Position numbers and translations under genes: made by a program. From Lingula anatina (lineage: Eukaryota > Animalia > Brachiopoda): a DNA stretch of 64,000 nucleotides. Positions 39,127-63,425 of the stretch are shown here, in pieces. A model generated the notes under the pieces. That model worked only from the letters and a program-made list of their open reading frames with translations, was not told the origin of the DNA and did not search any database. Location of the stretch: positions 17,670,001 through 17,734,000 of the forward strand of contig CM120641.1 in the NCBI GenBank assembly GCA_051362555.1, written 5' to 3'. Position 1 is the stretch's first letter. Every line of letters starts with the position of its first letter.

Positions 39127-42100
39127 ATGAGTAGATTCAGCAGAGACAGAAGTCGATCAGAAAAATACAGTGGTGCTGCATCCGATGTTAGCGAAAGGGT
39201 GATCCTCAAAGGAAAAGTACACGTTTTGAATATTGAGAAACATAGCAAGCAGGTGAGTCTAAACTTAGTTCACTTCAGCGTCAGCTTATTACTATATTGC
39301 TTTTCCAGCTGTATGTCTGCGTCTAGTAGTCAGGGAGAAGTAAAAGTGGTATAAAGTGTTCAGCAATAGTACTGTCTAACCCTTCGTTTACCTATTGCTC
39401 CCCTTAAAGCCTGATTTTTAAAGTAAATTCATATATGTGTGTGCCTTTCATTTTTGTTTAGATAAACAGATTTTGGAGGGAAGGCGGGGGGGAGGGGGGG
39501 GACAAAAGCTGGCCAGTGCTGTCTGTTGTTTGATCAGTTTGACAAGATCTTTTTTCAATGGGGGATATTCTTTAAACAGTTTTTAATTCACTTTGATTTT
39601 ATATAAATAAATGATGAATTGTTTCGTGGTTCAGCACAATTGCTTTTAACAGAGCTATTATAATCAAGTTCAATAAAACAGGTCTTTGATTTTTATCTCT
39701 GTGGTCATTATATAGAACTAGGATCATATGAAAAGTAGAATTATTTATTTATTTATCTTCTAGTATTTATTAGTATTTATATGTTTTTGGCGATAAATAA
39801 CCCTTGGTAATGTTTGTGTTAGCTTGTAAAATTGCATGCATTTTTCAATGATTAGTAACAGAGCTATTGTTAAATTAACTGAAGAGGCCAACATCATTTC
39901 AAGCAGCTAGCTTTGATTACCTTTTAAAACTATGCATAGTTTTTTAAGGTAATATGTGTTTATATGTTTGCAAAATCACAGTGTATCTAGTTTGGCTTCT
40001 ACACATTCACAGACTGAGGTAAGAATTTAATTGTATAAGCGTATTCATGTATTGGTTATACCTGGATTACACAAGTATTAATTTCAAACCTGTCTTTGTT
40101 ACAAAGAAAGCCATATGTTGGAGGAAAACTAAAACATTGTTCATTTTATTGATTTTTCTTTTTACCTTTATCTGCACAGCAGCTGTTATGAGATCTGCTG
40201 TGTTAACAAGTCATGTAAAGCATTGTTAACATTAGTGCATATACACAGAATTTAAATTTAAAATTGATATGTATTTTTCCAACTGCTTTGCCTTGTTTTC
40301 ATTGCTGTCAATTAACCTTTTAAAAGGCAATTTGAATGTGGTTTGACACCACAGAGAGGGATGTGTATTTTCAGAAAGAAATGAACGTAAGAATCAATAT
40401 GTGATTAAGCCATCAAATGAAACAGAAATTTCTGTGTCAGTTTCATTTGAAGGCTCAATTACATGAAACTAAATTTTAGATTTGCTATTTGAATTTATAT
40501 TTTCAACATGATTTTAGTAGTAATAAAGGAATATGATTTAAGAATAGTAATTTGAATTAAAATAGAAAAAATAAATAAATAGGTTCTTGACCCAGGGTTA
40601 TGTTTGAAGATATTTGATGTCATATGTTAACATCATCACATACAGGTTACTCACCATTGGCAATTTCAACATTATGGATTAATAGTTTTTTTAAAGACAT
40701 TTTGTTTGGTAAGCAGACATTTTCAACTATAGATCTGTAGTGTATTCACACTTAATAAGTTCTATATAATTCACTTTTTACATGATGAACTTGCACAAGA
40801 CTTTCCAGCCACACATAAACTGTATGATGCACAAATTATACACATACAAGTTTTACCACATACCTTCGTCCAGTATGGATTTTCTTTGCATAAGTTAATG
40901 TAAAGGTTCTAAGAAAAATGGGATTATTGATTTAATTACCCCCATCTACACATCAGTTGATGGAACACAGGTGAGGTAAACAATTAAAGCAGGTATCATA
41001 GTCACAGGTGGTATCCACCTGTCAGAAAGAACTGTTTTATATATAAAGTAAAGTGTGTGTGTGTGTTTTACTTCCCTAAGCAGTGAATTCTACACTTTGA
41101 ACCTTTGTATATGTATGTAATAATGAGCTAATTAAGCCTCATAAAAATCGAAGACTGCTTAGTTGTGGCTTATGATGATCAATTAGTATGTCACAAAAAA
41201 AACAGCCAGGCTTTAAACAATATAAAAGCGCATAATTGCAACTAAGCCTAGGCAGTTTCAGTAGTATTGAAACAGTTGCCTCAACTTGTCTGTTTGCCTG
41301 TTGAGCCTAGAGCAAATTTACTTATGTGTGATTTGCATTATCATATACCCCTCAGTATGGCTGTTTCTTAATTAGAAGATATGGCACGTCATCTAGGTAA
41401 AGAAAATGATAAATCACATGTAATTAAGACCTAGTGTTATACATATGGTCAGGTATTTATTTCAGAACTATATTGCCATTTCAGGTTGTGTGTAATGTTT
41501 TTCTGTTGCTAGAAACTTGGTCATTGCTATCTGAAATCATTGGTCCATATTTACTTGAGACTTTATGTTTAATCAGCAGGATGGCCCTAGCCATCTTTCA
41601 TACTGTAAAATGTTAATATTATAGTAGCTAGCACTTTGTTGACAGTTGCAATCACTTATGGTTATTAGTTGATTTCTGGCTTGATTGCACTCAATTTGAT
41701 AGCTCAAATGCAAACAGAGTTTCCATTACTTTCTAATCATGCTTTTAGAAATTCTATTAGTCATAGTTTTGATATCACTGACTGATTTCATAGTGGGCGA
41801 ATAATGTCACCCATTGGCAATAATCTAAAGAGCAGTATGTTTCCAGAGCATTGTCTGATGATGTGATCAATAGTAATTGCATAGAGATAATAGAAAATGT
41901 TGTGCACTGGCCAACGTGCACTAACTCAATGGCAGTCAGTGGTGTTATGGTGACCAGATACAGTTTCCAGTTAATTAGTTTGGTTGACATATGGAACCAA
42001 CAAAGACAAATTTTTTTTTGTTCTTTTCTTTTTTTCAAACAATGAGTAATACGTGCTAACAGCAGCGTCCACTACAGTGCCCATAGAATATTGCTAGACC

Positions 42101-45100
42101 ACAAATTGCTGAAAATATTATCGTCCATGTAAAAGGATGACTACCTCTCTGCAAATGTGTCTGAACACAGATACAGTATCTCTCCTAAAAATTGTTCCCT
42201 GAAAATAAATCAGTCTTTAGACTGTTGCCGTCAGCTCAGATTACAGAAGGCCATTAATAAGTCACTCAGTGTTAGATAGATTAATGGTGGCTGGCCTAAC
42301 TTACTGTTAATTCATCTCCCTTGATCCATATCTGATTGTATCAGTTCACTCTGAATCAATCTAGAATCATGTTTTAGTAAGTGGTTACCATATGGCACAT
42401 GCAAAATTCTTGATCATGTAACAATGTTATATCATATCACATCACATCACATCATATTGTACAAAATCATATAATGTATGCACCAGTACAGGAGTACATT
42501 GAATCAAATGAAATAACAGTAATGCAATTATTTGTCATATGGCAAGAATGGAAAATTCTGTATTTATATTTACCTGGACATAATACTAGTAATTCATTTT
42601 CAAATGTAATCTTTTTGTTTGTTCATTTATTGATTGTTTCATTTAAATTTTTTCCATTTAAATTTTTTTTTTTTGTAATAGCTTGATTTATCATTGTTTT
42701 TTTTTTTTTGTTGTTGTTGTTGTTGAATGGTTAACCCCCCCCCCCCCCCCCAAACACTCACAATTGTACAGAAAGATTATATTAATGGGAGAGCATGGAT
42801 GCAGTTCAATTAAGGTACTCGGGGACTAATGCATCTGAGGAATTTAATCAAAGCCATTAAGCCCGAAGCTGTAGTCTGGGGAATGTTTCATTATTTATTA
42901 ATGCTGTGTGGAGTGCTGCTTCTACATTATTCAATAAAGCCTGATGTTCATGTTATGTATTGAATAGTAGGGGATTCTAGAAGCTTTCAGTTTGTTTTAC
43001 TGAATGTAGGTCTTTGTCTTTGGAAAATCTGTTATATTCTGTGCAAATTCATATTATTTCATCACATAGTTGCAGCAGGCCCTGGTTCATTAGCAGTGTG
43101 CATGTGGGCCTAACTATGTTAAAATCCTCATAATTACTGTTTTAAGGTTGCCAACAGTGACTAGAATGATACATTTATTCTGGAAAAAAAACTTGTTAGC
43201 TTTACCATTGGAAAGTGTATATTTACCAGTTTTATTGATTGATTTTCATTTATATTTTTAAATTGTCTTCAATGAAAATACACGCATATATATATATATA
43301 AGAAAGCATGTCCTTATTGGATAGGGAAACATAATTAGACATTATTGTAGTCCATCTTTTATACTGTACCCCACCTTGGCACTTGTGATTCTACATGTTG
43401 AATCTCCTTTGCTCAGTTTTAACTTATTTCATACCATGCTGGGAAACTGCTTTTAACTCATATGTAAAAACAGACTTCTATTCTTGTTTCCTTCAGGCCA
43501 AACATGGAAGTTCAAACAAAAAGGAATACAATGTATTTCAACAAAATAAAACCTCTGATGTACTGAATGTACATTGTGTGTTTGAGTGTGCAGTGTTTAA
43601 AGTGGTTATTTATACAAATTCTATGACACTTCAGGTGGTGGGGGGGGGGGGAGCTTAATCCATGTATTTGAGGTTTTTGTGTTTAATTAAACAAAAATAG
43701 AATAAACTGTTGCATAAAATCTTCAAATTTTGAATCAAACAGTCCATGTAATAGGGAGTAATTTGATATGAAAGAAACTAAATGAAAAGAAGTCATTAAA
43801 GAGAATTTTGTGATATGTATTTGGTAATGCTTTTGTGTTTTTTTTGTTTTTTTTTTTTTTTTTTTTGTTTTTTTTTATGAGAACTGTTGTATTATGATTT
43901 TTTAACTCCCCCTCTCCTCCCCTTAAACCAGTATTACATACATCCAATTGCTCCTATGCCCAAGTAATTTATTTTCACTAAATGAATCATACTTTCTGAA
44001 CACTCACTATTTAATGCAGGCCCATAGCCAGCAATTTCAAAAGGGGGGTTCTTTTTCTGAAAAAGTGGACCTTTTCCCATAAAAACTTCATGTACCTAGA
44101 TCAAATTTTACCCAGAGTGGGCCTTTTCCCAGCAAAAGGGCCGGTTCTTTCAAACCCCCTGAACCTCCCCTGGCTACGGGCCTGTAATGCATTGATAAAC
44201 ATAACAATTCTATTCTGATTTCATTTTTTTTCTTTCAGAGATATGTGGTTTTTGGTGCTTACATGAGATCCAATGATGAAACGACTAAAGGTAAATACTC
44301 AGTGTAGATTTACCATTTCATTGTATATATTCCATAACTATAGTTTAGATTTAACATTTTCAGTGTAAACTTCACAACTGTAGTGTAGATTTAGCATATA
44401 AGTATTACCTAGTATATCCTTGTTTCCCGGACCTAAAAGAAACTACCCTGTGGTTTGTGATGAGGAAATACATATAATATAATAATATAATATGTTTTGA
44501 ATCTGCATAAAGATTGAAATCTTTATTACAAGGTAATTGTGGGAGGAGGATTTTCTGAACCAAATATGAATTGCAGTATTTATAAGGTCAAACAGTGTAC
44601 AGTATATATTTTTCAAAGTATGACACAGTTTTAGCATGAATATTTTACAGATCTGAGATGGATAAAATTATGGCAGAAGAGTAACTTAGACATCCATTAT
44701 GCTTCATGCAAAATTGATAACCAGATTTACCAATATGTTATTACTTGCTAGTGAAGTGTCCCCTTGGGATAAAGCTAATTTGCTTTATCTAATGCGAAAT
44801 TTGATGTCCTCTTCAGTCTTGCTTCTATAGCTAACTGCTTCCAACAAGGTTCAGCATCATAATCAACATTGGTGGTTGTCACAAAGAAATAGTTAGCAAT
44901 AAATTCATTATTGTGAACTTAAGATACTATATTATGTTATGTCTGTTAAAAAGTTTTTATTATGATGGCTGCTAAGAGTGTGTGGTAAAGGTATATTTTG
45001 AAGAATATAGATTATGTTACGTCTGACTGATTCATTTCATAAAAGTGAGTTGTTCCTCCTAGCAGTTCACTTTATTCTGATGATAGGTGTCTCAAGTGAG

Positions 45101-46430
45101 AGAAAGGTTTGTTTTTTATTTATTTTTATCAAACTGTTAATTGCTTATAAATCCTTCTCAACATCTAGACCTCCACTAATTGTTTATTGACAGAAGTGAC
45201 ATGTAACAAATGGTTAAAAAATATTATCTAAAGACTTTATCTCTAATAAATAGGCCATACCTATGTTAACAAGATCAACCCTTCGTAAATATCTTGGTAA
45301 GCGTATTGGCCCTCTATAGTAACCAGCAACTGTTGTTGAAATGGTCATCAAAACTGCTAGTATTACTCTTCTGTTTGAGATTGGAGTAGAAAGAAAACAA
45401 ATAGATTGATAATTTGGCCTTAAAAAGCTGTTCTTTATTAATAATGGGATATAAGGACATTTACATGATAAAAAATATAAATGGTAAAAATGATTAGGAA
45501 AAAAAAACAACTGTTGTTAGCTTTTATTTAACTGTCATACTGATATAGTGCTGCAGCATGATAATCTACCTATGTCTGCCGTGCAATGCCAAATCCCCAT
45601 GATAAGACTGAATTATCTTGCCAAATCCAATTATAGGTATTTCTATCAACTGCAAATTGAATTATCTAGGATAGATGTTTTCATGCTGCTTAACCGTTTT
45701 GAAATAGAACATGTTAGCAGAAGTTTGATTTTTAAACCTGAAACCTTATACTTATATACAAAGTGCTAATATTTCTTGCGACATGCCTCATACTAATATA
45801 AATGTGCAAAGGATTATTTTTTCTTCTATGTCTCAGTGTACAGAAGGCCACTGCACTAGCTAACAGCTGACTAAGGCAAAATCTCCATTATCAGTGGTTC
45901 ATTACCACAAAGTAAAAAGGAAATAGATAATCAGTGGTCAGGATGGTAGTTTGAAAGGACTATCACATCTGCTCAAATTCATGTTCTAATGAAAATAATG
46001 GAAACCATACAGCTATCTTGTTTTAGGAACAAAATTGAAAAGAAAACCCTCATATGCTCAATCTCAAGAAATTGAACACTTTCAAGGCACAACTTCTTTC
46101 ATATTCTTAGATCTAAATTGTAGGAACCAATACTCTTTATCAGCAGGCCTTCGATGGTAATATTTCATTTATATAAATATGATTTATTTAACATGAATAT
46201 GTCAGTATGGACATTAATTTTAAAATGTGTCCTAAGGAGCACTAACATTAAAAGTCAGTCATTTCCAGTTGAGCTGATATTTTTGTGATTCCTCTATGTT
46301 GATAAAATGAAGATTTTTCAAGAAAGCTATTTTGGACATACCCAGTATGATCTCTTTCCTGGATCTCTAAATGGTACTCAATTATTTAAAACCGTATCCC
46401 ATTAAAAAATCTTTTGTTAGTGGAATGTTC

Positions 46431-46498
<68 letters not shown>

Positions 46499-49400
46499 AC
46501 CCTGCACCTTGAAAGTGGTATGATTGCAATATGAATATATAAATGTATTTTCCTCATATACTTTCAGAGCATTATTTTCTCAAGTTGTTCAAGGATGAAA
46601 AGGAAGTCATCTGTAAGGGAATTTATGAATTTACCGCTGACCAATTCTGTGGAACAGAGTTGGGGAGTTTAGAGACGCAAAAATCTTTTGTAACCGTCAT
46701 GTTTTCTAAACACAAGGATGCCTACTTAGCTCTGTTTCTAGAGGATGATACTGTGATTTTTAAAGTTCGTGAGAGTGACCAACAAGCCAAGAAACTGCTG
46801 GATGACTGGAAAACAAGAATCGAAAATGAATTCAAATTAAGTGAGTTATTGCATTTTTTCCCACCTACGTGCATTTCTTATTTGTTTTACTTCATAATGG
46901 TAGATATTAGTATTAACACATAGCACACATTAAAATTGAATGGGATTTTGCTGTATTTGTTTTCCTTTCTGTGTTCTTCTGACCTTCATTGTCTGTATCA
47001 GTATATAATCTCGTCAAACCTTTATAATGTGATATTGATTAAGAACAGGATGGTCCTTATGATTTGTTACTTTAATTAGTTGTCTTTTTTATCTGTTATA
47101 AGTTCATTGGTGTTTGTTGTATTGATTTTCATTTGTAAAATCATGAATTATTTTACAAATATTTTTTAAATTATTATTTTTCTTTTGATTAATTGCCATT
47201 TATCATGATAAATTACCAGCACACCTTTTAAAATAAGTATAATTTAAGAATACAGGAATGTGTGTAGCATGATTTTTAATAAAAAGAATGAGCTTTGTTT
47301 GATTAAAGGGATAATAACTCTTCATTTTGGCCAAAAAATGAATTTTCCTGGAGTAAACAACAATTTTCCCATAATTACCAATGGTTAATCCATTTTTACA
47401 TTCAAAGTTAGTCCCTGGTTTTTTTCTCAAAAGTTTGGTTTTTTGTTAAAATCTCTTAAGAGATTATAACAGAGTATAGCCATCAATGGGGTCATGTGGT
47501 CTAAAGACAAGCTCAGATATCAGAATAATAGCTATAACTGCCATTTTTGTGGTAAAACAGAATATATTATATTTCTATGAGTTACTCACAATGTTTTTAT
47601 TGTGAAAGATAGATCTCATACGAAGAGTTATTATCCCTTTAAATTCAAATTATTAAAAGAAAAGTGCACAAGAATTTGTGTCAAAAATCAAAAATTTGTG
47701 ACAGATACATTGTTTCTCTTGAATAATAAGGCCACATTCGTATCGTGTTGAGCCATGGCTCTACAAAGCCACGACCTAAATATGGCGGACGTTCATGAAA
47801 AGAAAAACGCCTAATCATGTCAGCCGCATTTGTTGTAAAAAAAAAGACGAAATACAACATCAGTTACAGGATGGCAACAGTAAGAGAAAAACTGAAAAAT
47901 TCATATACAATCATGTTTATGGTGTCAGACAGCAGTCCCATGTAATATAATTTTGATTGCTTGGAAACAGTATATGTGACATTTCATTTCTAGCAAAAAT
48001 ATATAATTATGTATGTACATATATTTTTTTTAATTTTCAAGCACAGGGTTATCACCAAATAGGATGTGGTATGGCTTTGAGATGCACTAGTAATGAAAGC
48101 CAGTTTAATATGGGAAATTAAAAACCATGTATATCCCCAAAACAATCATTTAAGGTTATGTCATTGGTAAGATTCGGCCCATTTTCGATCAGAAATACCT
48201 ACAGTAATTAATCTTTTTGTTTCAGAGGAGCACTGGATCATAACTGCTCTGGAGGGCAATGGTTTGCCACATGATAAGGTCACTCTACACATCACAGAGC
48301 GTTCCGTCAGCATAACTCTGATCAACCCGCCTCATTGTCTTCGTCGCTGGGACCTTAACAAATGTATTAATGTGAGCCACCATAAAGACATCCTAGAAAT
48401 AGAAGTCAGTGACCCACTTGCAGAGAAGGATGTCAATAGACCAGGCAAGTTTCTTATGTATTTTTATGTGATTGTTGATATAGTGAAGTGTTACAGATAC
48501 CATTGTGAAAGTTTCTAAGGCACTTTTTTTATTTGCAGGTGTTTACAAATTTAGAACAAAAAGATCTCACCTGATTGCCCCTAAGATAGAATCCTCTAGA
48601 ATTCTCTACACAAAGAGACTTCGTTCAAGGTCTGTACATGTATCAAGTAGAGCCCCGCCTTCTTTTCCCCAACACAAGGGTGCTAGCTCGCCATCAGCTT
48701 CCAGCCACTCTTCCTGTAGCCCTACTATTACACCTGAGAAGAAAAGACCTCTACCGCCAGTCCCACCTTTGGTAGAGGAAGAAGAAGCCGCCACTACCTA
48801 TATACCTTTACCTTTACATGCAGTCCCCCCTGTTAGTGGTGGGGTAGCAAGATCAGCATCAGTGGGTGACCTGGTACAGGAACGTGGTCTTAGTGCAATG
48901 AAAAACAAAGCTGGATTGAATCGTTGTGGAAGTTTTAATGACTTGGCAGAATTGGCTACTATGTATAGAGCATTCCATTTGGGCAGTAGACATCCTTTAA
49001 AAAGTATGAACGACCTTGGTCAGTCACTGAAATCTGAAAGCTCAGTGACAACTATGGGAAGGAAAAGATTAATGGCAAAATTGTGGAGTATACTTCGTCA
49101 CATCCAGGAAGAAGATATCTATTGGTGCATGAAGCACAGGTGAGATAGGACATGCTTTAGAGGTGATTAGTGAACACAAATGAACAATGTAATATATAAA
49201 TATATATTTAGGTTTTTAATTAGCTTTGTTGCTTTAATGAAAAACCAGTAACAATGTGATGTACTGTTAACTACACTAAACCTATTATCCCCAGTATGGG
49301 GGTTTACTCTTGATATTTTCACCAAACAGCAGATATATGATTGAACCTTGTTTATGAATTAGTCTTTTAAATCCCTGTTGTTCATTTAACTTTTTTTAAT

Positions 49401-51847
49401 GATTCTAGAAATATGCAGAGGCCATGCTATGATGCTGACTACCTGAATACAGATGTAAGTAAGATGTAAAGGCCTTTAATTGTACTGCCAGAGCTGTTGT
49501 GGCCAAAAACTACCACAGCTACAACCCCATCAGCCCCACTGTTACAGCCAAGATGGAATCTTCTTATAACTATACTGAACAAAAATATAAACACACGAAA
49601 CTAAAAGGGTCAGATGAAATGGATAATCATGAAATATGCCCAAGTTTATGGTTTATTTGTGAATTGATGGATTTGTTTTGATCAAGTATAGTGGTCTGGT
49701 TTCACTTGGCCGCTCCCCGTGAGTATACTCAAAGGTTCAGTTTTTACACCCATAAGACTAATGGAGCATGACAGAGTGGAGGTCAATCTGCATGACCTAT
49801 ACAAAGACACTCCTTACAGTCTAGGCAATAAAAGGGCACACCAAAATGTGCATTTCTGTCACTTGTCAACATGCCACAGATGTCTGAAATCATGAGGGAT
49901 AGTGCCATCGGCATGCTCAATGCTGGCTTGTCGGTAACAGAAGTTGCAGCATGCCAGAATGTGCATCATTCCACTGTCAGCCATCTGAGAACACGCTTCA
50001 GAGACACCGTCAACCACTTGTTACCACACCCGATTTGTTGCCCATCGAACACATGTGGCATGTTCTGGATCAGCGTTTTTGCCATCATGGTCCAGCTCCC
50101 GAGAATATGTTTTCCAACTGCGAGTGGCACTTCAGGAGGAATGGGATAATGTCCCTCAGGCCACTATTGTCAACTTAGTGATGCCCATGTTCTGCTGGTG
50201 TAGTGCTTTGCACGAAGCTTATGGTGGCCTATTGTAGTGTCTGTGAACTCAGGATGTTGACCTTCATGGTGTATTTGATACCCTAACTCTTGGACTATGC
50301 ATTTAAACTTCCCATAATGCTCTCAAAGTGATGTCTGTTTGTTGAGGAAAATATGCTGTTATTGTTGGCTAAATACTCTAGTTCTATACATGAAAATAAA
50401 TCAAGATATTCTTTCGTGCGTTTATATTTTTGTTCAGTATACTTCTTCCAAATCAATTATCAGTGTTGTCAGTCCTCTTTAGGATGTCCATTACCCCCCC
50501 CCCCTCCTTTTTTTTTTTTCATCCGGTACTATTGAAAAGCTTGACATCAGGTGTATGGCTAAACCATAAAGTTAATGTATTTTCAACAGATAATTATTGA
50601 ACTTTGCTTATCAACTCAAGCTGCATTTGATTTCTGGTAAAAGAATTAATGTAAATTTTGATGTAATATTGTCATACAAGGACATATATTCATTCAAGGA
50701 CAGCGATTTGGAACATGATTTGGCTTAATGCCAAATTTCAATAATTTAATGATGTTTTTAAACTGCTATTTTTATTTCTTCACCTCAAACAAGTTGATAT
50801 GATTTTCTCAACCTTTTTTTCTAAAATTTTTTTTTAAATTTCCATATAAATTTATATTTTGGTTTCTTACCTATCAGATAAGCTACACATTAATGTGTGC
50901 TCTCCGAGGCAGCAAACCAAGAAAGAACATCTTGGGTCTATCAAGAGCCACTAGGGACAGACTGGTCTGCAAGCTACATGTGAAGGAAGGCTGGGAGATC
51001 CTTGCTGAGCACATAGGTAGGTAAAGCAAGACCACACTATATTTGTGGGACATGCACCTGAACTGTTTGTTCTTTTAAGATTTATTGAACATCTCAATGC
51101 CTTAAAAAGTCTAAGACCGCATTCTCAATGAATTGAGCCAGGCTTTACAAATCCTGGGGACTAAATATGGTGGACGTACATGAAAGAAAAAACGCCTAAT
51201 CGTTTAAGTCTCTCCACCTCTCACACGCCTCCCCATGTGTAGTCCCAATGGAGCAGAGATATAATGACTGTACCCCCGCAGGGATGACGCGTGGGGAGGC
51301 GTGTGAGAGGCGGAGAGACTTAAACGATTAGGCGGTTTTTCTTTCATGTACGTCCGCCATCTTTAGTCCCCAGGATTTGTAAAGCCTGGCTCAATTCGTT
51401 GTGAATGCGGTCTAAATTTCACGTGAGAACCTTGAGGTTCGGATCTGATGCATACCAGGTTCTTCATTTTCAAACTCATTACATAGGGGCACTTCCTAAA
51501 AAAGGGAAGCAACTGATCTGAAATTCAAGATACATACGTTGGAAGAGAAAGGTCAATTAAAAATCTTCTTAAGAATAATCTTGTTGATATTTTACTTTGT
51601 CCTTTTAACAGGAATGTCATATGAAGAGATGAATTTGGTAGAAGTTGTGTGCCGCTTCTACAATGTTGTAGTCGGAGATGTGATTCTTCAACACTGGCAA
51701 CTCCTGTCAGACAAATCCAAAGACTTTGAACCAAGCTGTACCAAGAAAAATCTAGTCAAATTTGTCAAAGACAAAATGCCAGAGAGGCAAGACATACTGA
51801 CAATCTTAGAAAATGACAAATCATTTCAGGAGACAGATTTCAGTTGA
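39127..51847 (+). CDS. DOK-like PH-PTB adaptor with C-terminal death domain, paralogue 1 (8 exons, about 563 aa)
   Basis: Exons 39127-39252, 44239-44290, 46568-46840, 48226-48444 (GC donor), 48539-49139, 49409-49454, 50878-51016 and 51612-51847 join in frame. PH-like (ILKGKV..RYVVF..LKLFKDEK..KGIYEF..LDDWKTRI), IRS-PTB-like (LRRWDL..LEIEV..GVYKFRT), KRPLPPVPP, TYIPL and death-domain-like (GWEILAEHIGMSYEEM..ILQHW..CTKKNL..ERQDILTIL). Confidence 0.8.
44017..44184. mobile_element. Small MITE with CAGG termini and a 5-bp TSD, copy 2 (a partial copy lies at about 34247-34390)
   Basis: CAGGCCCATAGCCAG...CTGGCTACGGGCCTG flanked by TAATG on both sides. Confidence 0.8.
46434..46496. repeat. (GT)n microsatellite
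   Basis: About 30 GT units. Confidence 0.95.
47307..47638. mobile_element. Kolobok-like MITE, family K1, copy 2
   Basis: TTAA|AGGGATAATAACTCTTC...GAAGAGTTATTATCCCT|TTAA. Confidence 0.85.
47730..47820. mobile_element. Fragment of the Harbinger MITE arm
   Basis: GTTGAGCC...CTAAATATGGCGGACGT.CATGAAA matches the 12867 arm. Confidence 0.6.
49573..50439 (+). mobile_element. Internally deleted Tc1/mariner transposon
   Basis: TA|TACTGAACAAAAATATAAAC...GTTTATATTTTTGTTCAGTA|TA. Transposase remnants: AIGMLNAGLSVTEVA (HTH), PDLLPIEHMWHVLDQR and QLRVALQEEWDNVPQATIVNLV. Confidence 0.9.
51115..51412. mobile_element. PIF/Harbinger MITE, copy 2 (short, nearly palindromic)
   Basis: TAA|GACCGCATTC...GAATGCGGTC|TAA; arms homologous to the 12867 element. 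Confidence 0.85.
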
Positions 51848-52466
51848 CCTTGAAGGTTGACTTAGTAAGTTAGTAATATGACTGGTGCCCTATATGAGAC
51901 CTGTTATCAGTTCAGCCGGCCTCAGACATCCCTGTATTAAGGTCTTTTGATTTTAGTATAACTGTTATTTGTCCATTTTATTGCCAAAAATGTTTTTTTT
52001 TTCAAGTATTTAAGATAATAAATCTACAGCAAATGTAAATGTGTATGTACCAGCATATATGTTTTGTCTGTTTTTTAACTTCCAGATGCACATGGCAGTC
52101 TGTTATTTACTACTGGTATTCATTTAGATATATTCAGGTTGACATAGCATAATGAAAAAAAAATGTTTTGTACCAATATTGGTCCTGTGAAAATGGTGTC
52201 AAAACAATACTGAAAGTCAAATATTTTTGCATAACAGTCTGTGCTAACCCTTAGTGCTGATTTTCATACATCAGTGACTTAAAATGTCTAGAGCAGAAAG
52301 CCCAACTTTGGGCGGGGTGGATTGAGGGCAGAGGGACATTTGCCCCCTCTCTCTTTCATTCTCCCCTACCCCCTCCAGGTTTTTGGATTAATAGTGTCCT
52401 ACTGTAGTCCTACAGTCCTACCTGCTGTTGGATTTCCAACAGCTGCCTCCCAAGCATCTGCTTTAA

Positions 52467-52800
52467 AGGGATAACTGTTCATTTTGGCCTAAAATTGAAT
52501 TTTCCTGGGGTAAAGGACAATTTTCCCATACATACAAATGGTATATGAATCCGTTCCCACATTAGTCCTTGGTTTTTTTCTAAAAAGTTGTTTTTTGTAA
52601 TAATCTCTTAAGAGATCTCAAGAGATTATTACAGAGTGTAGCCATCTATGGAGGTCACGTGATGTGATGTCAAGTACAAATTCCAAAATAATTGTGTTAA
52701 CTGCCATTTTGGGGGTAAAATAGAATTTTATGTATTTTGAAGAATTAATACAATGTATTTATTGTGAAATAAGGATATCATACGAATGGTTGTTATCCCC
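52467..52800. mobile_element. Kolobok-like MITE, family K1, copy 3 (in the predicted 3' UTR of paralogue 1)
   Basis: TTAA|AGGGATAAC...GTTATCCCC|TTAA, with internal homology to 47307. Confidence 0.75.
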
Positions 52801-53904
52801 TTAAGCTAATTTAAATTTGAAACAGAAAAGAAACCAGTAAAATATTTTGAATTAAATTGTTCATGATTCTACTTATATAATTTAATTTAAGCAGATTTTT
52901 TAACAAAGTTGCATGAGGACAAAAGCCAATTTTTAAGCAACTATAATACTGCCGTCCATTCTGGAAGTTGAATCTATACCGTTTTTTGTTCTGCTTTCTC
53001 ATTTTTCTTCAAAGTGAATACTTTGCCATGTACATTTCTTTACAAAAGAGTTTTGTGCTTAATGTTCAGGTGTTTTACATGTTTGGTGCATAATGAGTTA
53101 ATCTAATTGTTGCTTTTGATAAATTAATGTCTTTGAAAATCCCATTAAAAAAAGGCAGCTATCTGTGTAAAATTGGTAATTATTTTTCCATTTTTGACCT
53201 CTGTCACCGTCTTTGCATACATACGGGTTAAAAGGGAGATCCCTGAAATCATTTTCTCAAATTCACAGCTGCAAGAGTAATCAAATAATATATGTCATTT
53301 ATATGTCTTATGTTTTTTAAATTGTAGTAGTGATGTTTTATTATTTTGAAAGTCCCATAGTATTTGTGAGATCACTTGAGCACATGACTTCACAAAGTCC
53401 CACTTTTTTGTTAAAAGTAATAGAAGGTGCAGGGCTTTAAAAAAGTCACATTTGCATGTTAGTTATTTTCATGTTAAGAGTTGAATGACTGTTTAACCAG
53501 ATAAGAAGAGTTATAGCAACTTTTCAAGTTTAATAGAGTAAGTATATATTTACTGATGTTTAAGGTATAGTAATCACTTTCTTTGGAACAAAATATTAGT
53601 GAAATAGCTATTACAAGAGTGAAATGAACTGTTTTACTAAAAATTTGTTCCAAAGAAAGTGATTACTATCACTAAAACATAATACAATTTCTTGGAACCA
53701 TAAACAATCTTTCTGATTACTTAGTATGTAGTAATATGTGAGGAATTCAAATCTTGCCTTAGCCTCAAATACACGTATCAATTAAAGTGTGGATTTTCGA
53801 ATATTTTATTGCATGTTTTGTGCTACTTTTATTCACGTTATCCTGTTCTCTGAACCATGTTATTTTACTTACTTTGTCCAGTGTTTCACATGAAACTGTA
53901 TTTG

Positions 53905-53910
53905 AATAAA
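53905..53910 (+). terminator. Likely poly(A) signal of PH-PTB-DD paralogue 1
   Basis: AATAAA with TGTA upstream and T-rich sequence downstream, about 2 kb after the stop. Confidence 0.45.
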
Positions 53911-54604
53911 TGTGCATATTAAATTATAAGTACTAACATTTTCTTTCATTAAATTGTTATGCCCTAAAAAAAAGTTTTAACATAAACACCGAAACAGTAT
54001 ATAAATTCTGGTTTAAAAAACAAGTACAATTTATTGTCTCAAACAATGTTAGCAAATTTTGACAAAATTATAGTTAAAATTGCTAACAGAATTGAAATTA
54101 CAAATGCCTAAGGTGTCAATAGTGGAAAAAATGAATCTTCGTCATACAATAATTAAAAATGACTTCGGTCTTGATATCAGCCTTTTATCCACACCATGTG
54201 CAATTCCACTCTAAATTAATATCTTGTTGAAAGCTTTCAGAATTTTGTCACCTGTTTAATTAAAAACAAGGCAAGCAACAGGAGCTAGCACGAAGCAAAT
54301 TGCCTTTTATTTCTGCGTTCACATGAGGAACTTGAAAAGAGCGAGGTGGATAGATTAACAATTTTTTTTCTCGTTATTGTTCTTATAACAATGAGTGCAC
54401 CACAACATCATAGGTCTCCTTGTGATGCATCCTCCTACTCAATAAATTTATACTCAAGAATAATATCAGGGGCAGACCAGGCCAGTCTTCTACTAGGCTG
54501 TCAGAATTTTTCAAGTTTACATCTAATCTTTTCTAATTTCTTTTGTCAGAAGATGGTCCAAAAAGAGAGATTAATAAACCTGGGGTAATTTGGAAGACAG
54601 AAAA

Positions 54605-54901
54605 CAGTGGCAGATCCAGGATTATTTGAAAGGGGGGGGGGGGGGGGGGGTCCAGAACGACAGGCCTCGGATGAGAAGCCGACCATCGCCCCCCTTGGTG
54701 TGAGGTTCAGGGCCTGCTCAAGGGCCCCAAATGTTTGTTGGTGTTTTGGAGAGCAAACAGTGCCCTTTGGTACGGTTTAGAACTATCATTTAGCTAGTCA
54801 AAATTCTAATTTCAAGAGGGGAATGTTGGTGTGATATATTTTTCAGAAACCAAAGGGGAGAGGGGCAGGAACCCCCTCACCCCCCTTTAAATTGGCCACT
54901 G
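54605..54901. mobile_element. Small MITE with CAGTGGC termini
   Basis: CAGTGGC...GCCACTG with G/C runs, flanked by AGAAAA on both sides. Confidence 0.55.
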
Positions 54902-55211
54902 AGAAAATATCTCTGGATCAGCCCCTAAATATCTCTTCCTCATATTTTCTTTTAAAGCACTTCCCTGTCTGTTACTGAATAAAAATGTCTCTATAAAGTT
55001 CAGTTACAATTTGCTAGCCAAGTAGAAACAGTTATCATTGTAGTAAATTGATGCATGCAAACAAGCTAGGTTGACAGGTTTTATGCAGTTCCTCTTTCAG
55101 AGACTTTTTAAATCAGTTTCTTCAACTGCTTGGTGTGGTAGCTGTGCATAAACACAACTAATACAATAACAAGTGCTAAGTGTAAGTAGGACTTTTTGAC
55201 TGCAATGTTAA

Positions 55212-55915
55212 GGATGTTGTCACCCTTCGCCCAAGACTCCTTATTTACTGCCTTACATGCATTCTTTTGGGTAATAAATAAATCTTCAGTCTTCAGTGAC
55301 TAAATTAATTAATATTTACATATATGTCATCTTACAGGTGACGTCATTATGCGATTTTGTGGTTAAAACAGAAAAAATCAGTTTCTCAAATTTCTCTTTT
55401 ACCTGAGCACCCACGATCACCATTTTAACGCCGACTTCATGACACCATTTAGTGTTCCAATACCCTGCACGCGATTTTTCTTAAAAGTCTTAGTTCAGAT
55501 TTTATCATTGATAAAGCAAAATAATCCCTTTGTTTGATGACATTCCATTATTAGGGGCTCATGATTCCATAACAAAAACATTAAACCAAAATGACGATAT
55601 GGGATTGTAGCCTATACAACCCTGGTCAACTCTGCAAATTTTTGTGATAAGATCTTGTTCAGGGATGAAGTTAGGCCCCATACGGATTGCTATCTCACCT
55701 CAAAGTATAAAGGTGTTAAATTGGCAATTCAAGTTTTGAGTTGAATATGCTTATACATTGTAACAAAATATATAAAGGCCAATATTTTATGTTTTCGATG
55801 TTTTTTTTTTATTGTTTTAAATCAGCACAAAGATAGATGCATATAAATAAATAATTAGATGCAGGAAAAAAACTAATTTTCGGTATCTGGATGAAAATAA
55901 AGGGTTACAACAACC
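55212..55915. mobile_element. Kolobok-like MITE, family K2, copy 2
   Basis: TTAA|GGATGTTGTCACCCTT...AAGGGTTACAACAACC|TTAA; homologous to 15119-16330 without the LINE. Confidence 0.8.
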
Positions 55916-56535
55916 TTAAAAGTTTGAAAACTTTGTTTGCTGCATGAAGAAAGGCATTTTTGCAGTATTCCCCCACCCTACAGCTCTTCAATTTCTAATG
56001 GTTATCAAAATTATATTATGTGGTGACTTTGATCAATGTCCCTGCTATTCAAATAAATTAGTTTAGAAATTATAATTAACTAAACTGATATCTTTTTTCA
56101 GTAATTTTTTTAGTTCTTTGATCACTGAGATGTTATAGCGAGTATGTGATTTCATCTTACTCTGTCCCTGCATGAAACGTTACAACAGGGTAGTTTTAAA
56201 ACTTGTTTGTCAAATGCAGCGCATCGCCCCCTCAAATTCCTAGACTATACGATTCTCTATCAGTCAATGGACATCCCTTAACGTCATAATTGCTCATGAG
56301 TGCCGTGCATGCAACAAGGAAGTAGATTTTTATAAAGAGTCACAGTGTATTAGGTCACCTCTTTCTTCTTGTCTTGGGTACCTAATGCATTGCTCTGACC
56401 TCTATCGGATTATAAGATGAGAAACCTGCTAGACGCAAGGTCTCTCGATTAGGAATTGAAACTGAGGTGACTATGATAGTTGTACAGTGCCAAAAACAGA
56501 ATGATAGATAAGCATAACTGTGGCACGGATCGAAA

Positions 56536-59500
56536 ATGCCTCGAGTAAAAGAGATTAAAACCGGAAAGTTGGATCACATGAAGAGACAGAACTACTTTAA
56601 ACCGGTAAGACTTGCGGAAGTTCGAATTGAACTTTAACTCGAAGCAGATATCTGTATAAAAGAAATTCAGTTTGTTACAAAGTATAATTTAAATGAAATA
56701 TACATTATGCGCATGATGTTGTTAAAGAGGGTCCCATTGAAAGCCGCTTTTCTTAACCGAGATGCTTGAAACGAGCACATTATTACATCTTGAAAACCAT
56801 GAGGACTCAATATCTGTAGGCTACTTTTAGGTATGTCAGAAAAAATTCATACTGATCAGAAAAAATAATATTCATATCTTGTGAAAGGTAATGCAAAACA
56901 GATTGCAATTCTTTTGGAATTTTTAAAATATTCCTACAAGTAACAAAGATATTTATTTTTTTATTTAGTACTATATCACACCCAAAGTGTCCTCACTTTT
57001 CAGCCCAGGTGACCACTGACTGACATTGGACAGCACATCAAATTAACTATACTTCACATCGTTCAATTTTCATGTTTTTTTCCCATTAGATTGCAAATTT
57101 CCTGTACTTTTAAATGGTATAACTTACATGTGCTAAAAAAGAGATTTGAAAGGGATGTTATACAGGACCTGTCAGCAGGCCAGTCACAGATTTGCCCTGC
57201 ACTGCTGCTGGACAGTGTCTACAGTACTGTGGCACCCCTGGCAGATTGTGATATACCTGTTTGTTCTTGTGGATGCTTGTAGACACTTGTGGACGCAACG
57301 TACCATATTCTCTCTGTTATCGTTTCATAGGTCTACATATTAGCTACGGCACTATACTTAAAATTCCTTCTTGTGCTATATATATATGTGATTTCCCAAC
57401 CATTTTATGCTTGTGGACATTTGTGGTCATTAATTAGACAGACCTCACCAGTAATATAAAGAAATTCAATTTGTCACTTGGCATTTTCAGCATGCTTACC
57501 TATGTATGAAAATGGGAGTCTGCTGTTTTTCCATTGGTGGATGTGGTCAGGGGGTTCCAAAACATTGGCCCTCAAATCCAGCTAACTGTACTTTGGAGGG
57601 GAATCCTTTAAAACCTATTGCTGGGGTAGCACTAACACTTACCAATTTAGCCAAATGCTAAAACTGACTTAAATTGGCTAAACAAAAAGGGGTTGATTTG
57701 ACTAATTTAAGTCAAATTAAAACCATTTGGATAACAAATTGACAAAAGAGTGGTGATTTGGCTAAGCAAAAAAAAAAAAATTGTTGCCACTACCCCAGTA
57801 TCGAGGGTCCTTATTGATTCTTAAGGTCAAGTTCAGATATCCAGTCCACTTGGATTATTTAATGTTTCTCTTTTTTTTTTTTTTTTTTTTTTCAATTTTT
57901 ACAAATTGGCACTTTCCTGATGTCTTAAAATTCCCACAGGTTAAAATCTCTGTGTCACTACATTTTGTGAATATCCACAAGGTGCGTGATTTAATGGTGG
58001 CGATTACACTGTTAGGTGTGTAATATTGCATCAAGATTCAAATTTTCCAAACAATATTTTATGAGCTATCTTTCATATCATAAGCAAAATTTTAAAAAAG
58101 CCTTGTAACTTTATATATATAGATTGCTAATAGGTGTGGGATGAAGACCATTTCTTTTTGTAAAGTTCATGTTTTTTGCCTTAATGTAAAAAAAAAACCC
58201 TGAAATTTTAATATAAATATGTAGTTGGAAAACCCATTGACATTTTTTTTTCTAATTTTATATTTTTTGTTATCGATGTTATCTCATCAATTGCATGAAC
58301 TGATATTAGATCATGACTTCTTCCAATTTGTATCATAATTAAATCACATTTTGTTTGTGTTACTGGGCGTAAACCTTTGCAGTCTTGTAGTTTATTTGTC
58401 TCTTATAAGCAATGAGCATTTCTTCTTGTGGTTTATTTATTTTTTTTTTCAGAGACAAGTTCAGTTTTGTAAGGTGATTGAAGGACTAGATACAGGTATA
58501 GCAATTTCTTTTCCACATTTTGTATGAGGTCACTTAAAGTCTAAATAAATCTAAATACTTATATAGTTGAATGAAGCAGTATTTTTTTTTTTTTTTTTTT
58601 TTTTTGACAGACAGTGTGTTTGGACTAGAGCAATCAACTGCATCTATTTCAATGAACTGTTGGCATTTCTGTCATAGAGCACTTTCCTGGAATTTTTACT
58701 TGTAACACAATCAGAGGAAAAGTTTAATTGTTATTTTTAAACAAATAGGAACAATCCATAGTATTAAGTAACAGGAGTCCTGCGAGAATTTGTGCATAGA
58801 ATTGACATGGACACAATTTGCATCTGTGCCTCTGACAACCAGAGCACCACCCTGATGATACTGCTACTTTTGTTTTGCAGAGTACTACCTCATCAAACTC
58901 TTCAGACATGATGATAAGCTTCACCGCAGGGTGCCGAAAGGTTCTATTCAGTTCAACAAAGCTGATGTCTGTGCAGTTCACATGTGGGAGGCAAAGGAAG
59001 AGAAAAAGAAATTGCTTCGGTCTCAAGTTATTTTGAAAAATCATGTTATTTTGTTTTTACCTGAACCAGTCGTTTTTCTTGAGAAGAGTAGTGATGAGTC
59101 TCTTGAAGCACTAGAGTTGTTGGAGTGGTACAACTGCTTTGTGAAAGAATTCAAGCACAGTAAGTTTTGGTCACCAAAACCATCATTTTGTAAGATGACA
59201 TTCATTTTACACTGGTTTCTTTACACTGATAAGTTCTTTGCTCTCCCATAGTTAATTTAGTTAATTATCCCTATAAACAAACAAACAAAAAAATATTGTT
59301 TTTTTGCATTCAGTTAATCATAGATTCTGTAGTGAGACTGACATCCACATTACAGGGCACCACTGGGAAGTAGAAGTGCCAGAGAAGGACTACTATAAAC
59401 CTGGTCAGTATTGGTTACACCTTATGGAACAGTCATTGTGCTTAGTGTCCAGGTCCAACTTGTATGGTCCATGTGACCCAGTCTTTGCATGCTATGACCA

Positions 59501-60046
59501 CTACTCTTTAGAGGATGTGGAGGTGTCATGGTCTCCTGGAATTCTAGACTTGAATGTCTATGATAGTGAGTACAAAGGTTCTAGCCATATTTTTATAATG
59601 GAATGTACATAACAATTTATTATAGTGGTTAAGTCCATAACAAAGATGTCTACAGGGGGTATATTCTTTTGAAAATACTACTGATTCTTTTTGACTGTAA
59701 CTTGAAATTTGTTAGAAATATTTGGAAATTCAAGTTGCTTAATTAGCTGCTATTATCATTAGAGTTATGTCCTGCACAGTGTAAAGGTTATCCTGATATT
59801 TTTTAAAGTTGACCAACTTTACATCTTTTGATTTAATGAAAATTAAGATCTGAATCCTTAAACTTTTATTTACATGTTGCTTTTGGATCAAAAACTTATA
59901 CTATATGTAGCCATATAATGAAAAAATATTTTTCTTGGTTTCTAAACAGTATGATAAAACAGAGATTTTATGACCCAAACAGGGACAAATATCTTTAAGT
60001 GAATATTTAATGTGACCTTGAATTAGACATTTGACCTGCTTTTCCA

Positions 60047-60087
<41 letters not shown>

Positions 60088-63000
60088 ACACATATTTGCT
60101 ATTTCTCCACAACTAAAACAAAGACCCATTGCTACTCTAACTTAAATGAGCATAATCTACTTAAAATTGGTGTTGATTTTCATGTTACTTAAGCATCATG
60201 TAAGATTGCATCAAAATTGACAAAATAACCTATTTTGTGAATTATTTGCTTTCATGTCTGTATATTTTACAGTTTTGCTGCTTGTATATAATTGTAATGA
60301 GATGAAAATATGGCAGTTTGCATTACATTTATGATATTATTCCTGTTTCGTATTGACCCCATAAATATTGTTGGAGCTGCTTGTGACTCAAATGGCTTCT
60401 TTTACTTTGTCAAATAGTACAAAAAAGGAGTTCTTTTTTAGAATTAATTTTCCAAAACCAAATTATGAACTTATGTTTAGAATTTCAGGTTACTGCCTTT
60501 ATCAGTGATGTAAGCAAGAATATGAAGTAATGTCACTTATTATTAATTTACTATTTCGTATATATGACTAAATTAATAGGGGTGTACCAACTGCACCTTA
60601 ATACCTGCAATACTTCTTGTGAGTGTTTTTTTTTTCTACAGAACAACAGATTAAACTCAAGACACCATTTGCAAAGGACATTTATAATGTTATTAGTGAG
60701 AAGACAGCAGAGTTATCAGCCCATAAGCAATCTGATGTTGTTAAGCCTGTTTCTCCGACAACACCTTTCCCCCCTCAGAGACCAGATGGCGCAGCGGTGT
60801 CAGTGAAAGTAGAGCCACCTGACTGCCCTCCCACCCCTCCCCTAAGGAAGGATGTAGAGTCTCCGCTTGTGAATCCAGATATAAATGCTTCCATTGTCCC
60901 ACCAAGGCCACCCAGAAGTCCTTTACATACAAGAAAGGATGCAAATCTTGACAAAGATATGTCACTGGACAGTTCCGAGGAGGATTTTAAAAACTTATCG
61001 ACTGAAAATGTTCATCGTCCTTTGCAGATGTCTGCCAGCATTCCTTATTCTGTAGAAGCTATACGTCCCCCCTTACCTCCCTTGAGAAGTAACAGTGATC
61101 AAAGTGGCTTAGTGTCCAATTTCCAAACCATGCCACCACCTCTTCCGCCAAGGACACCCTGTAAAAAAAGCGACCAGCAGAAAAGTAAACCATCAGACCT
61201 TTCAAGTAGTTATCATGATGTTAAAGCAGGAAAAAAGTGGCAGAATGTAATGGTCTCTACAGAAGAAGAGCAAGGGAAGACGAATGAAATGATTTTAAAC
61301 ATTCCAGTACAAAGTTTTGATCAAAATGTCACCATTCCTTGCAGTCCCAAGACGCCTAGCCCAACTCTGACTGTAAATCCTAAGGGCTCCAAAAAGGATG
61401 ATTATAAAAATGTGAGAAGACCTCTTCCTGCTCCTCGGACGAAAAATAATTCAACTGGAGGAACATCAGCATTAGACTCAACAGATCAAACTTTTATAAA
61501 ATTTGAAGATTTACAATCATTCAACAATGGTACAGTTCAGTCATTGAATTTAGAAAGTGACCATGCAGATCAAATGCTTCAGTTCCATGATATCTCTGCT
61601 CATCAACCTTTGACAGACAGTGACTATGATACAGTGGCATGTGTGCAATCAAAAGCTTTATTTCCTTCAGGGCGAAGCCGTTCTTATTCACTTGAACGTT
61701 TATCAATCCACAGTGACTCGTCCGACTTGCCTGTTGAGACAATTTATGGAAGTGCGGAAGATTTGTATGACATTCATAAATTGGAAGAATTTAGAGAAAA
61801 AGTGTTGAGAGGGGATTTCAGTACACTGTACAGTGGAATCAATCGAGACCAACTTAGTAAAGGGCGTGGCAGTGGCAGAAAACACTGGATGAGAAGTGCA
61901 CTTGTTCAAAGTGAATGCATGTATGTAAATGATGACCTTCAAAGTAAAGAGCCGGCCCCACAACTGCCACCACGAGATTACCCCCAAGCACGGTACATAA
62001 ACAAATGAGATAACAGTTTTATATCCTCTTGCACTACTATCAAAAAAATTACTACTCTGATACAGCACTAATTTAATCGATTAAGTTTTGTTCACATACA
62101 ATGGGATAGAGAAAGATGAATGTCAATAAACTGGTTAAACTAACATAACTCTTCTCAGACAAGATAATTAAGATACTGGAAATTTTAAAACCCTCAGATA
62201 CCATTTGCATGAATTTAAAAAAATTGTGTAAAATTATTTTAGGCCAGGCTATGCAACTTTGCCTAATTTGAGACGCAGAGAAGATAGGAATACGATTCTG
62301 GATATGGATTACTGGGCTTCAGAGGTATGAGATGTTTCTGTTTATTTTTGATACAGCAGAAAAAAATTTTTAATGTATTCAAGTGGACAGTTTTTTTTCC
62401 AATATATGATCTATTTAGAAAAAAAATTGATAAAATTAGTGTTGATTCACTGATTATATTTTTTTGGATTCTTTTGTTGATAATTTTATTCAATCATTTA
62501 TTTATTTGTTTTATTTATTAGTATATTTTTTAATTATATGTTGTAACAAGAATAGGATAACTGAGTGCTCAGGCAATTTGGCCCCCAAATGTCTTTTTTA
62601 ACTCCAGAGCATATGGAATTTTAGTTTAGAAAACTGCAAGATAGTTATTTTTCTTTTTCTCAGAACTGTCTCCACGTTTTCATCAAATTTACCATTGCAG
62701 ATGTTTTGAAAAAAATGTGAAGCAAATCAGAACTTCAAATCTTGAACTCTTGATTTTCCCTCAGTTTTTTAGTTTTGTTGAATTATTAAATTTGCAGATC
62801 AGTCAAACTCTCCAACTAATATTAGAAAAGACCAATCCTGTGCCAGATACCCTTCTGATATCTTCACTGGTAAAGGAAAGAATTTGCTTTAAACTTTCTT
62901 ACATTCCTGCTTCAACTGACTGGCATAATTTTGCGGAGGAGATAGGTAGGTGTATAAGCTACGTACAGTGTGTTCTAGAAATATGTTATTAGCAAAAGAT

Positions 63001-63425
63001 AGCATAACAATATGAATCAAGACTTATTCTGTTATGATGATTGGCATGTACATTGGGTACCTGCAGTTTTTTCTGCACTTAACATTTCTTCATTATAATC
63101 AGTCCTGTTTGATCGAAATACTACTTTATTGAATTTATATAACTAGTATTTAATATTTTTTTATTATTAAATATTGTTAAACGCTTTTCTGGTAGGTCTT
63201 CATGCAGATGACATTGGTATCATAGAAAACTTTGCCAGATTCCACAACGTTTGCCCAGCCAAGATAGTGCTAAACCACTGGCAGGTGCTAGAAAATAATG
63301 GTGTGATTGCCAGTGATTCCACAAGTATCAAACACTGTACCAAGCAGTCTCTGTTGGACATATTGGAAAAATTGGAGAGATTAGATTTAGTAGAACTTAT
63401 TAAGAACCGGGATAGAAAACAGTAG
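56536..63425 (+). CDS. DOK-like PH-PTB adaptor with C-terminal death domain, paralogue 2 (8 exons, about 803 aa)
   Basis: Exons 56536-56604, 58453-58495, 58881-59159, 59356-59565, 60642-61992, 62243-62324, 62798-62945 and 63196-63425; intron phases 0,1,1,1,2,0,1 match paralogue 1. EYYLIKLF..KGSIQF..LEWYNCFVKEFK (PH-like), HHWEV..IKLKTPFAKDIYNVI (PTB-like), many PxxPxR and Tyr motifs, and a death-domain-like end DWHNFAEEIGLHADDIGIIE..PAKIVLNHW..CTKQSLLDILEKLERLDLVELI. Confidence 0.8.

Follow-up and report, generated by a model that had tools for sequence, protein, structure and literature searches.

A DOK7-like PH-PTB module joined to a predicted death domain in a tandem gene pair of the brachiopod Lingula anatina

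The docking proteins DOK1-6, IRS-1, and FRS2 combine an IRS-type PTB fold with a low-complexity tail that carries docking motifs for SH2 and SH3 domains, and to our knowledge none of them contains a death domain. The structure of the PH-PTB module of Dok-7 is known together with a juxtamembrane peptide of MuSK (PDB 3ml4). Death domains are found in the Myddosome proteins MyD88, IRAK4, and Pelle/Tube. Apart from the family described here, we know the pairing of a PTB domain with a death fold only from engineered chimeras. In the brachiopod Lingula anatina the family is represented by two genes, here called A and B, which are same-strand neighbours in a stretch of 64,000 nucleotides (assembly GCA_051362555.1, contig CM120641.1, positions 17,670,001 to 17,734,000 of the forward strand). 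This stretch is referred to as the window, and all coordinates are positions within it. Both genes encode a DOK7-like PH-PTB module, a linker, and a predicted C-terminal death domain, and this is a real, conserved, and undescribed domain combination. There is hardly any doubt about the architecture and the kinship to DOK7.

The engineered DED-PTB and DED-SH2 chimeras (Howard et al., cited in PMC2575513) resemble the family in that a PTB-type module is joined to a death-fold module. However, they are artificial, their phosphotyrosine reader is functional, and their death-fold part is a DED, while the family lacks the reader arginines and has a death domain instead. A search of the literature for death domains together with IRS-type PTB domains or Dok-7 in invertebrates gave no description of such a protein, in line with the original prediction made from the sequence of the window; subscription papers and the supplements of genome papers were largely outside this search, and a prior listing is possible. 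The invertebrate history of DOK7 is barely studied, as has been said for the non-vertebrate chordates (PMC12445529).

Transcripts and the predicted C-terminal death domain

Gene A has its coding span at 39127-51847 and gene B at 56536-63425, both on the plus strand. Joining the exons by coordinate confirmed two genes of eight exons with open frames of 563 and 803 amino acids and the same intron phases (0,1,1,1,2,0,1), as had been predicted. Thirteen of the 14 introns are GT-AG, while intron 4 of A (48445-48538) is a GC-AG intron of 94 nt, crossed by 20, 20, 2, and 3 RNA reads. The model of A equals RefSeq XP_013395535.1 (LOC106162706 isoform X1) letter for letter; isoform X2 begins at M51 and would be without the first two PH strands. 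A protein search showed exons 1-5 of B to be 99% identical to L. anatina LOC106162724, for which RefSeq has a shorter model of 453 amino acids that ends within exon 5 and thus omits the death domain.

The RNA evidence consists of raw reads from six of the nine runs listed under the same species label. These are short reads, which show each junction separately and not one continuous molecule. The read alignment of A covered 46500-64000, and introns 1 and 2 of A rest on the RefSeq model. All five junctions of A that were examined (3-4, 4-5, 5-6, 6-7, and 7-8) and all seven of B are spanned by reads. For A, four runs gave 8, 11, 0, and 6 reads across the exon 5-6 junction and 10, 12, 0, and 13 across exon 6-7. 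The death-domain exons therefore belong to the transcripts of A and B, and the splicing on which the original prediction depended is borne out.

Two runs join exons 5 and 6 of B at donor 61992 (11 and 6 reads), matching the 803-residue frame, and two others use a donor 12 nt, or four codons, later at 62004 (10 and 4 reads). Since the window has AT at the latter site, the animals behind these runs probably carry a different donor allele. The reads of these runs show several mismatches to the window per 100 letters, which suggests a distinct population or a cryptic species under one label. A donor at 61920, giving 779 amino acids, was ruled out, as the reads splice at 61992. An isoform that loses the death domain by read-through of exon 5 found no support; the depth of 1.6-2.0 over 61954-62210 in two runs is what the 39 exon bases there would give. 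Intron 5 does begin with a short open stretch followed by an in-frame stop in A as well as in B, and in B there is an AATAAA at 62125.

The two proteins had been claimed to be alignable despite low identity, and this holds. The C-terminal blocks are 28% identical (E 2e-15) and the N-terminal blocks 24% (E 1e-10). Among 1000 shuffles, 0, 13, and 0 reached the scores of the PH, PTB, and death-domain blocks, respectively, and the similarity of the two PTB blocks taken alone is therefore marginal.

The death domain of A is encoded by exon 7 (50878-51016; an extra helix followed by helices 1-2) and the coding part of exon 8 (51612-51847; the remaining helices and the stop), after which reads continue to about 54000. 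Residues 432-563 of A, folded alone, gave a predicted local distance difference test (pLDDT) score of 87.9, and according to the model this C-terminus folds as a six-helix death domain. When the model was compared with 48,161 chains using VIA, the 16 best rows were all death domains. Pelle came first (Z 10.0, root-mean-square deviation (rmsd) 2.8 Å over 92 residues), followed by MyD88 (9.8, twice), ankyrin-G (9.2), and FADD (8.4); the identity to Pelle and MyD88 is 23-24%. The fold was modelled for A, while B, where the domain starts after the extra helix in exon 7 (62798-62945) and is completed before the stop in exon 8 (coding part 63196-63425), was assigned by a family death-domain profile built without B (E 2e-32). 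The Pfam Death model (PF00531) passes its cut-off in two of nine homologues (39.4 and 31 bits). In the Atlas the C-terminus has a similarity of 0.89-0.90 to Death clusters, which is a lead only, and the Atlas structure search with the C-terminus returned unrelated rows. The likeness to MyD88, IRAK4, and Pelle/Tube comprises the six-helix fold and extends to the segment that precedes helix 1. The family differs from these proteins in having neither a TIR nor a kinase domain and in that its death domain is C-terminal and preceded by the family-specific extra helix, which is found in all 11 long members, that is, those with both ends.

The DOK7-like module and its phosphotyrosine pocket

In A, the PH domain is encoded by exons 1 (39127-39252; start codon and strand 1), 2 (44239-44290; strand 2), and 3 (46568-46840; the rest of the domain), and the PTB fold by exon 4 (48226-48444; the core, ending at the GC donor) and the start of exon 5 (48539-49139; final strand and helix). 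The corresponding exons of B are found at 56536-56604, 58453-58495, 58881-59159 (exon 3, PH domain), 59356-59565 (exon 4, PTB-like core), and 60642-61992 (exon 5, end of the PTB domain). In the AlphaFold model of A, confidence is high in three blocks, at about 23-147, 150-256, and 440-553 (pLDDT around 90), and low in the linker.

Both profile and structure lead to Dok-7. An N-terminal family profile found Dok-7 (3ml4) in PDB at E 2.3e-4 when built from 10 rows and at 6.1e-11 from 17 rows, and in the latter case it was the only match below E 0.01. With neither profile did talin F3 or IRS-1 score better than E 0.02, IRS-1 being at 0.026 with 17 rows and thus a far weaker match. A Foldseek search with the model of A also ranked Dok-7 first (E 6.9e-11). 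By VIA the model matches the PH-PTB module of Dok-7 with Z 18.9 and rmsd 2.6 Å over 193 residues, compared to Z 14.0 and 9.3 Å for IRS-1. The PH and PTB domains therefore superpose as one unit and pack as in Dok-7, unlike IRS-1. Matches to single PTB-type domains were GULP1 (Z 14.5), X11 (14.2), Dok-5 (14.1), IRS-1 (13.4), and Dok1 (12.9). The Atlas structure search had two Dok-7 clusters on top, with TM 0.40 and 0.37, both below its bar. The Pfam IRS model matched 11 of 32 aligned rows at E ≤ 0.05, and with single exons and gene A all Pfam matches to IRS and Death were below cut-off. A single-sequence search of PDB gave no match under E 0.06, the Atlas feature similarity of the whole protein was under 0.8 (a lead only), and word-index homologue searches returned only Lingula's own proteins. 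Profile and structure models thus support the predicted PH, IRS-type PTB, and death-domain folds. The docking-module layout stands as predicted, while the generic likeness to DOK and IRS proteins is to be replaced by a specific likeness to DOK7.

The position of intron 3 provides a further link. Excerpts of the sources place human DOK7 intron 3 after c.331 (c.331+1; PMC6207248), intron 1 at c.54 (PMC13545678), and, by arithmetic on PMC5585400, give exon 4 a length of 201 nt. Intron 3 thus lies in codon 111 (phase 1). Three residues further on is F114, the counterpart in the alignment of a tryptophan of the family (W154 in A and W134 in B). The third intron of the Lingula genes cuts codon 151 in A and codon 131 in B, also in phase 1, and its position is identical to that of human DOK7. 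Intron 1 of DOK7 has the same phase as in A and B and lies three codons earlier, and intron 4 has the same phase and lies in a loop of variable length. If the boundary of DOK7 intron 2 is c.100/101, its position would equal that of intron 2 in A and B.

The numbering of the Dok-7 chain was anchored on residues named in excerpts of PMC4961371 (K18, K20, R22, and R54) and PMC10117378 (G64 and G109). The K/R-x-R motif corresponding to K20 and R22 is kept in 12 of 22 rows, including A, where K41-x-R43 straddles the joint of exons 1 and 2, and B. The equivalent of G64 is kept in A and in all nine death-domain homologues and is Ala in B. The equivalent of R54 is not kept in A, where it is I78. A complex predicted for residues 20-258 of A in two copies, made with no alignment, scored 0.00 and carries no weight either way.

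R159 and another, third arginine presumably belong to the phosphotyrosine pocket of Dok-7. Contact with MuSK depends on R158, according to excerpts of PMC5658635 and PMC8120944. The profile alignment places the Arg-Arg pair of Dok-7 and IRS-1 six and seven residues past a conserved aromatic, and the third arginine of IRS-1 aligns with D213 of A. The sites were read in 22 rows, namely A, B, nine long members (two by way of longer isoforms), and 11 short rows (one swapped, one added, and a fragment of 104 amino acids excluded). The pair is found in none of them; Arg is found at the first site in 0, at the second in one, and at the third in 0 of the 22. The three residues are I198, N199, and D213 in A, while B has E186 and V187 followed by Asp. 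As judged from these alignments, the pocket arginines are lost across the family, and this goes against the suggestion that the proteins could couple phosphotyrosine receptors through the PTB domain. The Arg-Arg pair is regarded as ancestral, because it is common to Dok-7 and IRS-1. Two defining features of DOK docking proteins, the pocket arginines and the absence of any further domain after the tail, are thus lacking, and the family is therefore filed neither as DOK proper nor as DOK7.

Linker, family distribution, and genomic setting

YxN is a ligand of the Grb2 SH2 domain and PxxPxR a Grb2 SH3 ligand, while YxxP is a ligand of Crk, Nck, and RasGAP. The linkers of the 11 long members were each compared with 2000 shuffles. 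YxN occurs 14 times against 3.7 expected and PxxPx[RK] 24 times against 3.9, neither number being reached in any shuffle, and YxxL/V/I occurs 22 times against 11.9 (reached in three shuffles). Over the 11 linkers there was no enrichment of YxxP (4 against 7.9 expected, none of them in A or B), YxxM (1 against 1.5), or class I SH3 motifs (6 against 3.9), and TRAF-type motifs were not enriched either. The enrichment of YxN and PxxPx[RK] therefore argues that the tail still resembles a kinase substrate with Grb2-type outputs. In this it differs from Dok-7, which is bound by Crk at Y406 (excerpt of PMC5043372).

The predicted Tyr/Pro-rich tail is present in B, where the long linker in exon 5 contains seven PxxPx[RK] and two YxN. 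It is weak in A; here the Ser/Pro linker in exon 5 and the short exon 6 (49409-49454; 62243-62324 in B) have no PxxPx[RK] and a single YxN, at Y435 in exon 6. Forty-two differences between reads and window in the exons of gene B were listed as the best supported of hundreds more; in these, the folded domains have 12 silent and no replacement differences and the linker 12 silent and 18 replacement differences (Fisher p 3e-4).

The part of the A linker in exon 5 (48539-49139) also contains two basic-x-x-S-x-x-D/E-L motifs against 0.04 expected, the pattern having been defined after it was sighted. The motif is also found once in Lineus and once in another homologue, and it might represent possible kinase or 14-3-3 sites.

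A phmmer search with A over 1.84 billion representatives (E ≤ 0.001) gave 21 matches, one of them its own short isoform. Nine of the other 20 have both the PH-PTB module and the death domain, and 11 have the N-terminal module only. The named ones among the nine are those of Lineus, Liolophura, Paralvinella, Glandiceps, Patiria, Anneissia, and Antedon, which we take to be a nemertean, a chiton, an annelid, a hemichordate, and echinoderms, making six phyla together with Lingula. The suggested restriction to one invertebrate lineage thus falls, while the proposed search for the architecture yielded nine further proteins. The named records are annotated as "uncharacterized," "hypothetical," or, automatically, as "Death domain-containing" or "PH domain-containing." A profile from four long ambulacrarian rows found both ends of all seven other long rows (E ≤ 3e-13 for the death domain and E ≤ 6e-7 for the N-terminus), while reversed decoys were at E ≥ 0.01. 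Names of chordates, arthropods, nematodes, or cnidarians were lacking among the named phmmer matches; the same search missed vertebrate Dok-7, and this is therefore no evidence of absence.

In an unrooted tree of the joined PH-PTB and death-domain parts, made with a mixture model, five spiralian rows are separated from four ambulacrarian rows (support 96/95), and the death domain alone gives the same split at 81/94. A and B are not sisters in the best tree, although such a pairing is not rejected (approximately unbiased test, p-AU 0.07). The 11 short rows are echinoderm wherever the species is named, and 10 of them form one branch with support 95/96. These echinoderm relatives have neither a death domain nor the arginine pair, and several species have two copies. 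The simplest reading of these sequences is that there may have been one old fusion followed by a later loss in an echinoderm duplicate.

The neighbours of A and B at 4500-37000 are an AMP-binding acyl-CoA ligase (plus strand), a partly Met/Gly/Pro-rich C2H2 zinc-finger gene (plus strand), which we take to resemble ZNF207, and an S10 serine carboxypeptidase (minus strand). They are genes of housekeeping type, and there is no immune cluster in this region. Intron 6 of A contains a decayed helix-turn-helix fragment at 49832-50234 (Pfam HTH_23, E 8e-5), probably the remnant of a Tc1/mariner-type transposase. Intron 7 of A has a hairpin element of 300 nt at 51114-51413, with arms of 133 nt that are 92% complementary, and a partial copy is found at 47776-47823. 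A dispersed repeat is present in two copies, at 47300-47640 in intron 3 and at 52470-52800 in the 3' region of A, and RNA reads that stem from other places in the genome pile up on them by the hundred.

Proposed role and origin

A and B are spliced paralogues with a DOK7-like PH-PTB module that has lost its pocket arginines and a predicted death domain. They likely serve as docking scaffolds, whose death domain would bring them into place and which would feed Grb2-type SH2/SH3 adaptors. We give this reading as much credence as doubt. Since receptor phosphotyrosine would not be read, another entry is needed, for which the death domain is the obvious one, and this reverses the direction of signalling in the original prediction. 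That the signal goes in through the death domain and out through the linker tail is put forward tentatively, as somewhat short of an even case. The PH domain, in which two of the four lipid-binding positions of Dok-7 are kept (those of K20 and R22), would bind membrane phosphoinositides weakly, and the death domain would dock on a death-domain assembly close to the membrane, for which the MyD88/IRAK/Pelle type is the most plausible candidate. A tyrosine kinase would then phosphorylate the YxN and YxxL/V/I sites of the linker, and these, together with the PxxPxR/K motifs, could recruit Grb2 and SHP2-type partners towards Ras-MAPK. The PTB fold may have been retained as a structural or phospho-independent binding unit. 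B would have the full output tail and A almost none, so that A may be more of a modulator.

Several points weigh against this scaffold reading or the observations behind it. Gene A is an exception with almost no Grb2-type tail motifs, YxN is entirely absent from four of the 11 long members, the motif counts covered six types on linkers of unequal length, and the read differences in B are a best-supported selection. The arginine count comes from sequence alignments in which the identity to Dok-7 is about 17%, and Lys is found at the first, second, and third site in three, one, and two of the 22 rows, one crinoid having Lys-Lys; the R54 position is also lost in A. For the death domain, Pelle, MyD88, and ankyrin-G are tied within 1 Z, so that neither subtype nor partner is singled out, Foldseek with the death-domain model of A gave no match under E 0.001 (best 0.31, death domains leading), and the Pfam Death scores of A (16.6 bits) and B exon 8 (16.9 bits) are below the cut-off of 22.6. 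The PH-PTB-only trees are mostly without resolved branches and do not separate the phyla, and no tree contains a vertebrate DOK sequence, so that the sister relation to DOK7 rests on other evidence.

The PTB domains of talin F3, Numb, and Dab-type proteins bind independently of phosphorylation. The PTB domain of A and B might similarly bind an unphosphorylated receptor tail, in which case the output would come from the death domain, by nucleation of a death-domain assembly or by clustering of the receptor. This would account for a PTB fold that is intact and constrained, the best structural rows after Dok-7 include the phospho-independent PTB/FERM-F3 type (GULP1 and X11), and the family profile weakly picks talin F3 (E 0.001-0.08). 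However, the GULP1 and X11 rows tie with the PTB domain of Dok-5 and owe their scores to the fold that all of them share, a receptor whose tail would match was not found, and the Grb2-type motifs are compatible with such a role but not explained by it alone. We consider it unlikely, though worth serious attention.

As regards origin, the sequences make it likely that the family is a sister paralogue of DOK7, in which the death domain was gained once before the split between spiralians and ambulacrarians. That A and B are instead direct invertebrate orthologues of DOK7, whose death domain was lost in vertebrates, would fit with Dok-7 being nearest by profile, structure, and intron 3, and also on top of the Atlas structure search, under its bar. 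It is nevertheless improbable; the ancestral Arg-Arg pair would need to be lost twice, in spiralians and in ambulacrarians, and introns 1 and 4 are off by two to three codons. The sister paralogue is preferred because one loss of the pair in a duplicate is simpler than two in DOK7 itself.

The original prediction, when spelled out as a PTB domain that binds a phosphorylated receptor kinase of MuSK/ROR/Trk type and a death domain that conveys the signal to NF-kB or apoptosis, as a natural counterpart of the engineered PTB-DED chimeras, now appears quite improbable. It draws on the superposition of A on Dok-7, which binds pTyr553 of MuSK through its PH-PTB module (excerpt of PMC4961371), and on the artificial DED-PTB/SH2 chimeras, which turn kinase signalling to apoptosis (as described in PMC2575513). 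Against it stands that R158, needed for Dok-7 to interact with MuSK (excerpt of PMC5658635), is kept in none of the 22 rows. Both A and B also have Asp at the third arginine site. Very improbable is a decoy or brake, most plausible for A with its single YxN and no PxxPx[RK], in which a membrane-tethered death domain caps or sequesters Myddosome or death-receptor assemblies while the tail recruits inhibitory phosphatases; DOK1-3 are inhibitory adaptors and YxxL/V/I is enriched family-wide, but YxxP, the signature of the DOKs that recruit RasGAP, Nck, and Crk, is not, and B and three deuterostome members resemble activating scaffolds.

On a wider scale, the family could be a DOK7 duplicate as old as the bilaterians that acquired a death domain in exchange for the ability to read phosphotyrosine and links assemblies of Toll/MyD88 or death-receptor type straight to Grb2-Ras-MAPK. 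It would have been kept in spiralians and ambulacrarians, be absent from model animals, and have been overlooked because its members fall below the Pfam cut-offs. This is possible, although on balance rather doubtful. The shuffling of death domains is common in marine invertebrates (PMC2575513), which tempers the significance of one more combination. Still, no described adaptor is known to us that joins a DOK/IRS docking module to a death domain. If the scaffold reading is true, the family would connect innate-immune or cell-death complexes with kinase signalling in a hard-wired manner, and would do so in six phyla. DOK7, a human disease gene, would gain an old sister lineage.

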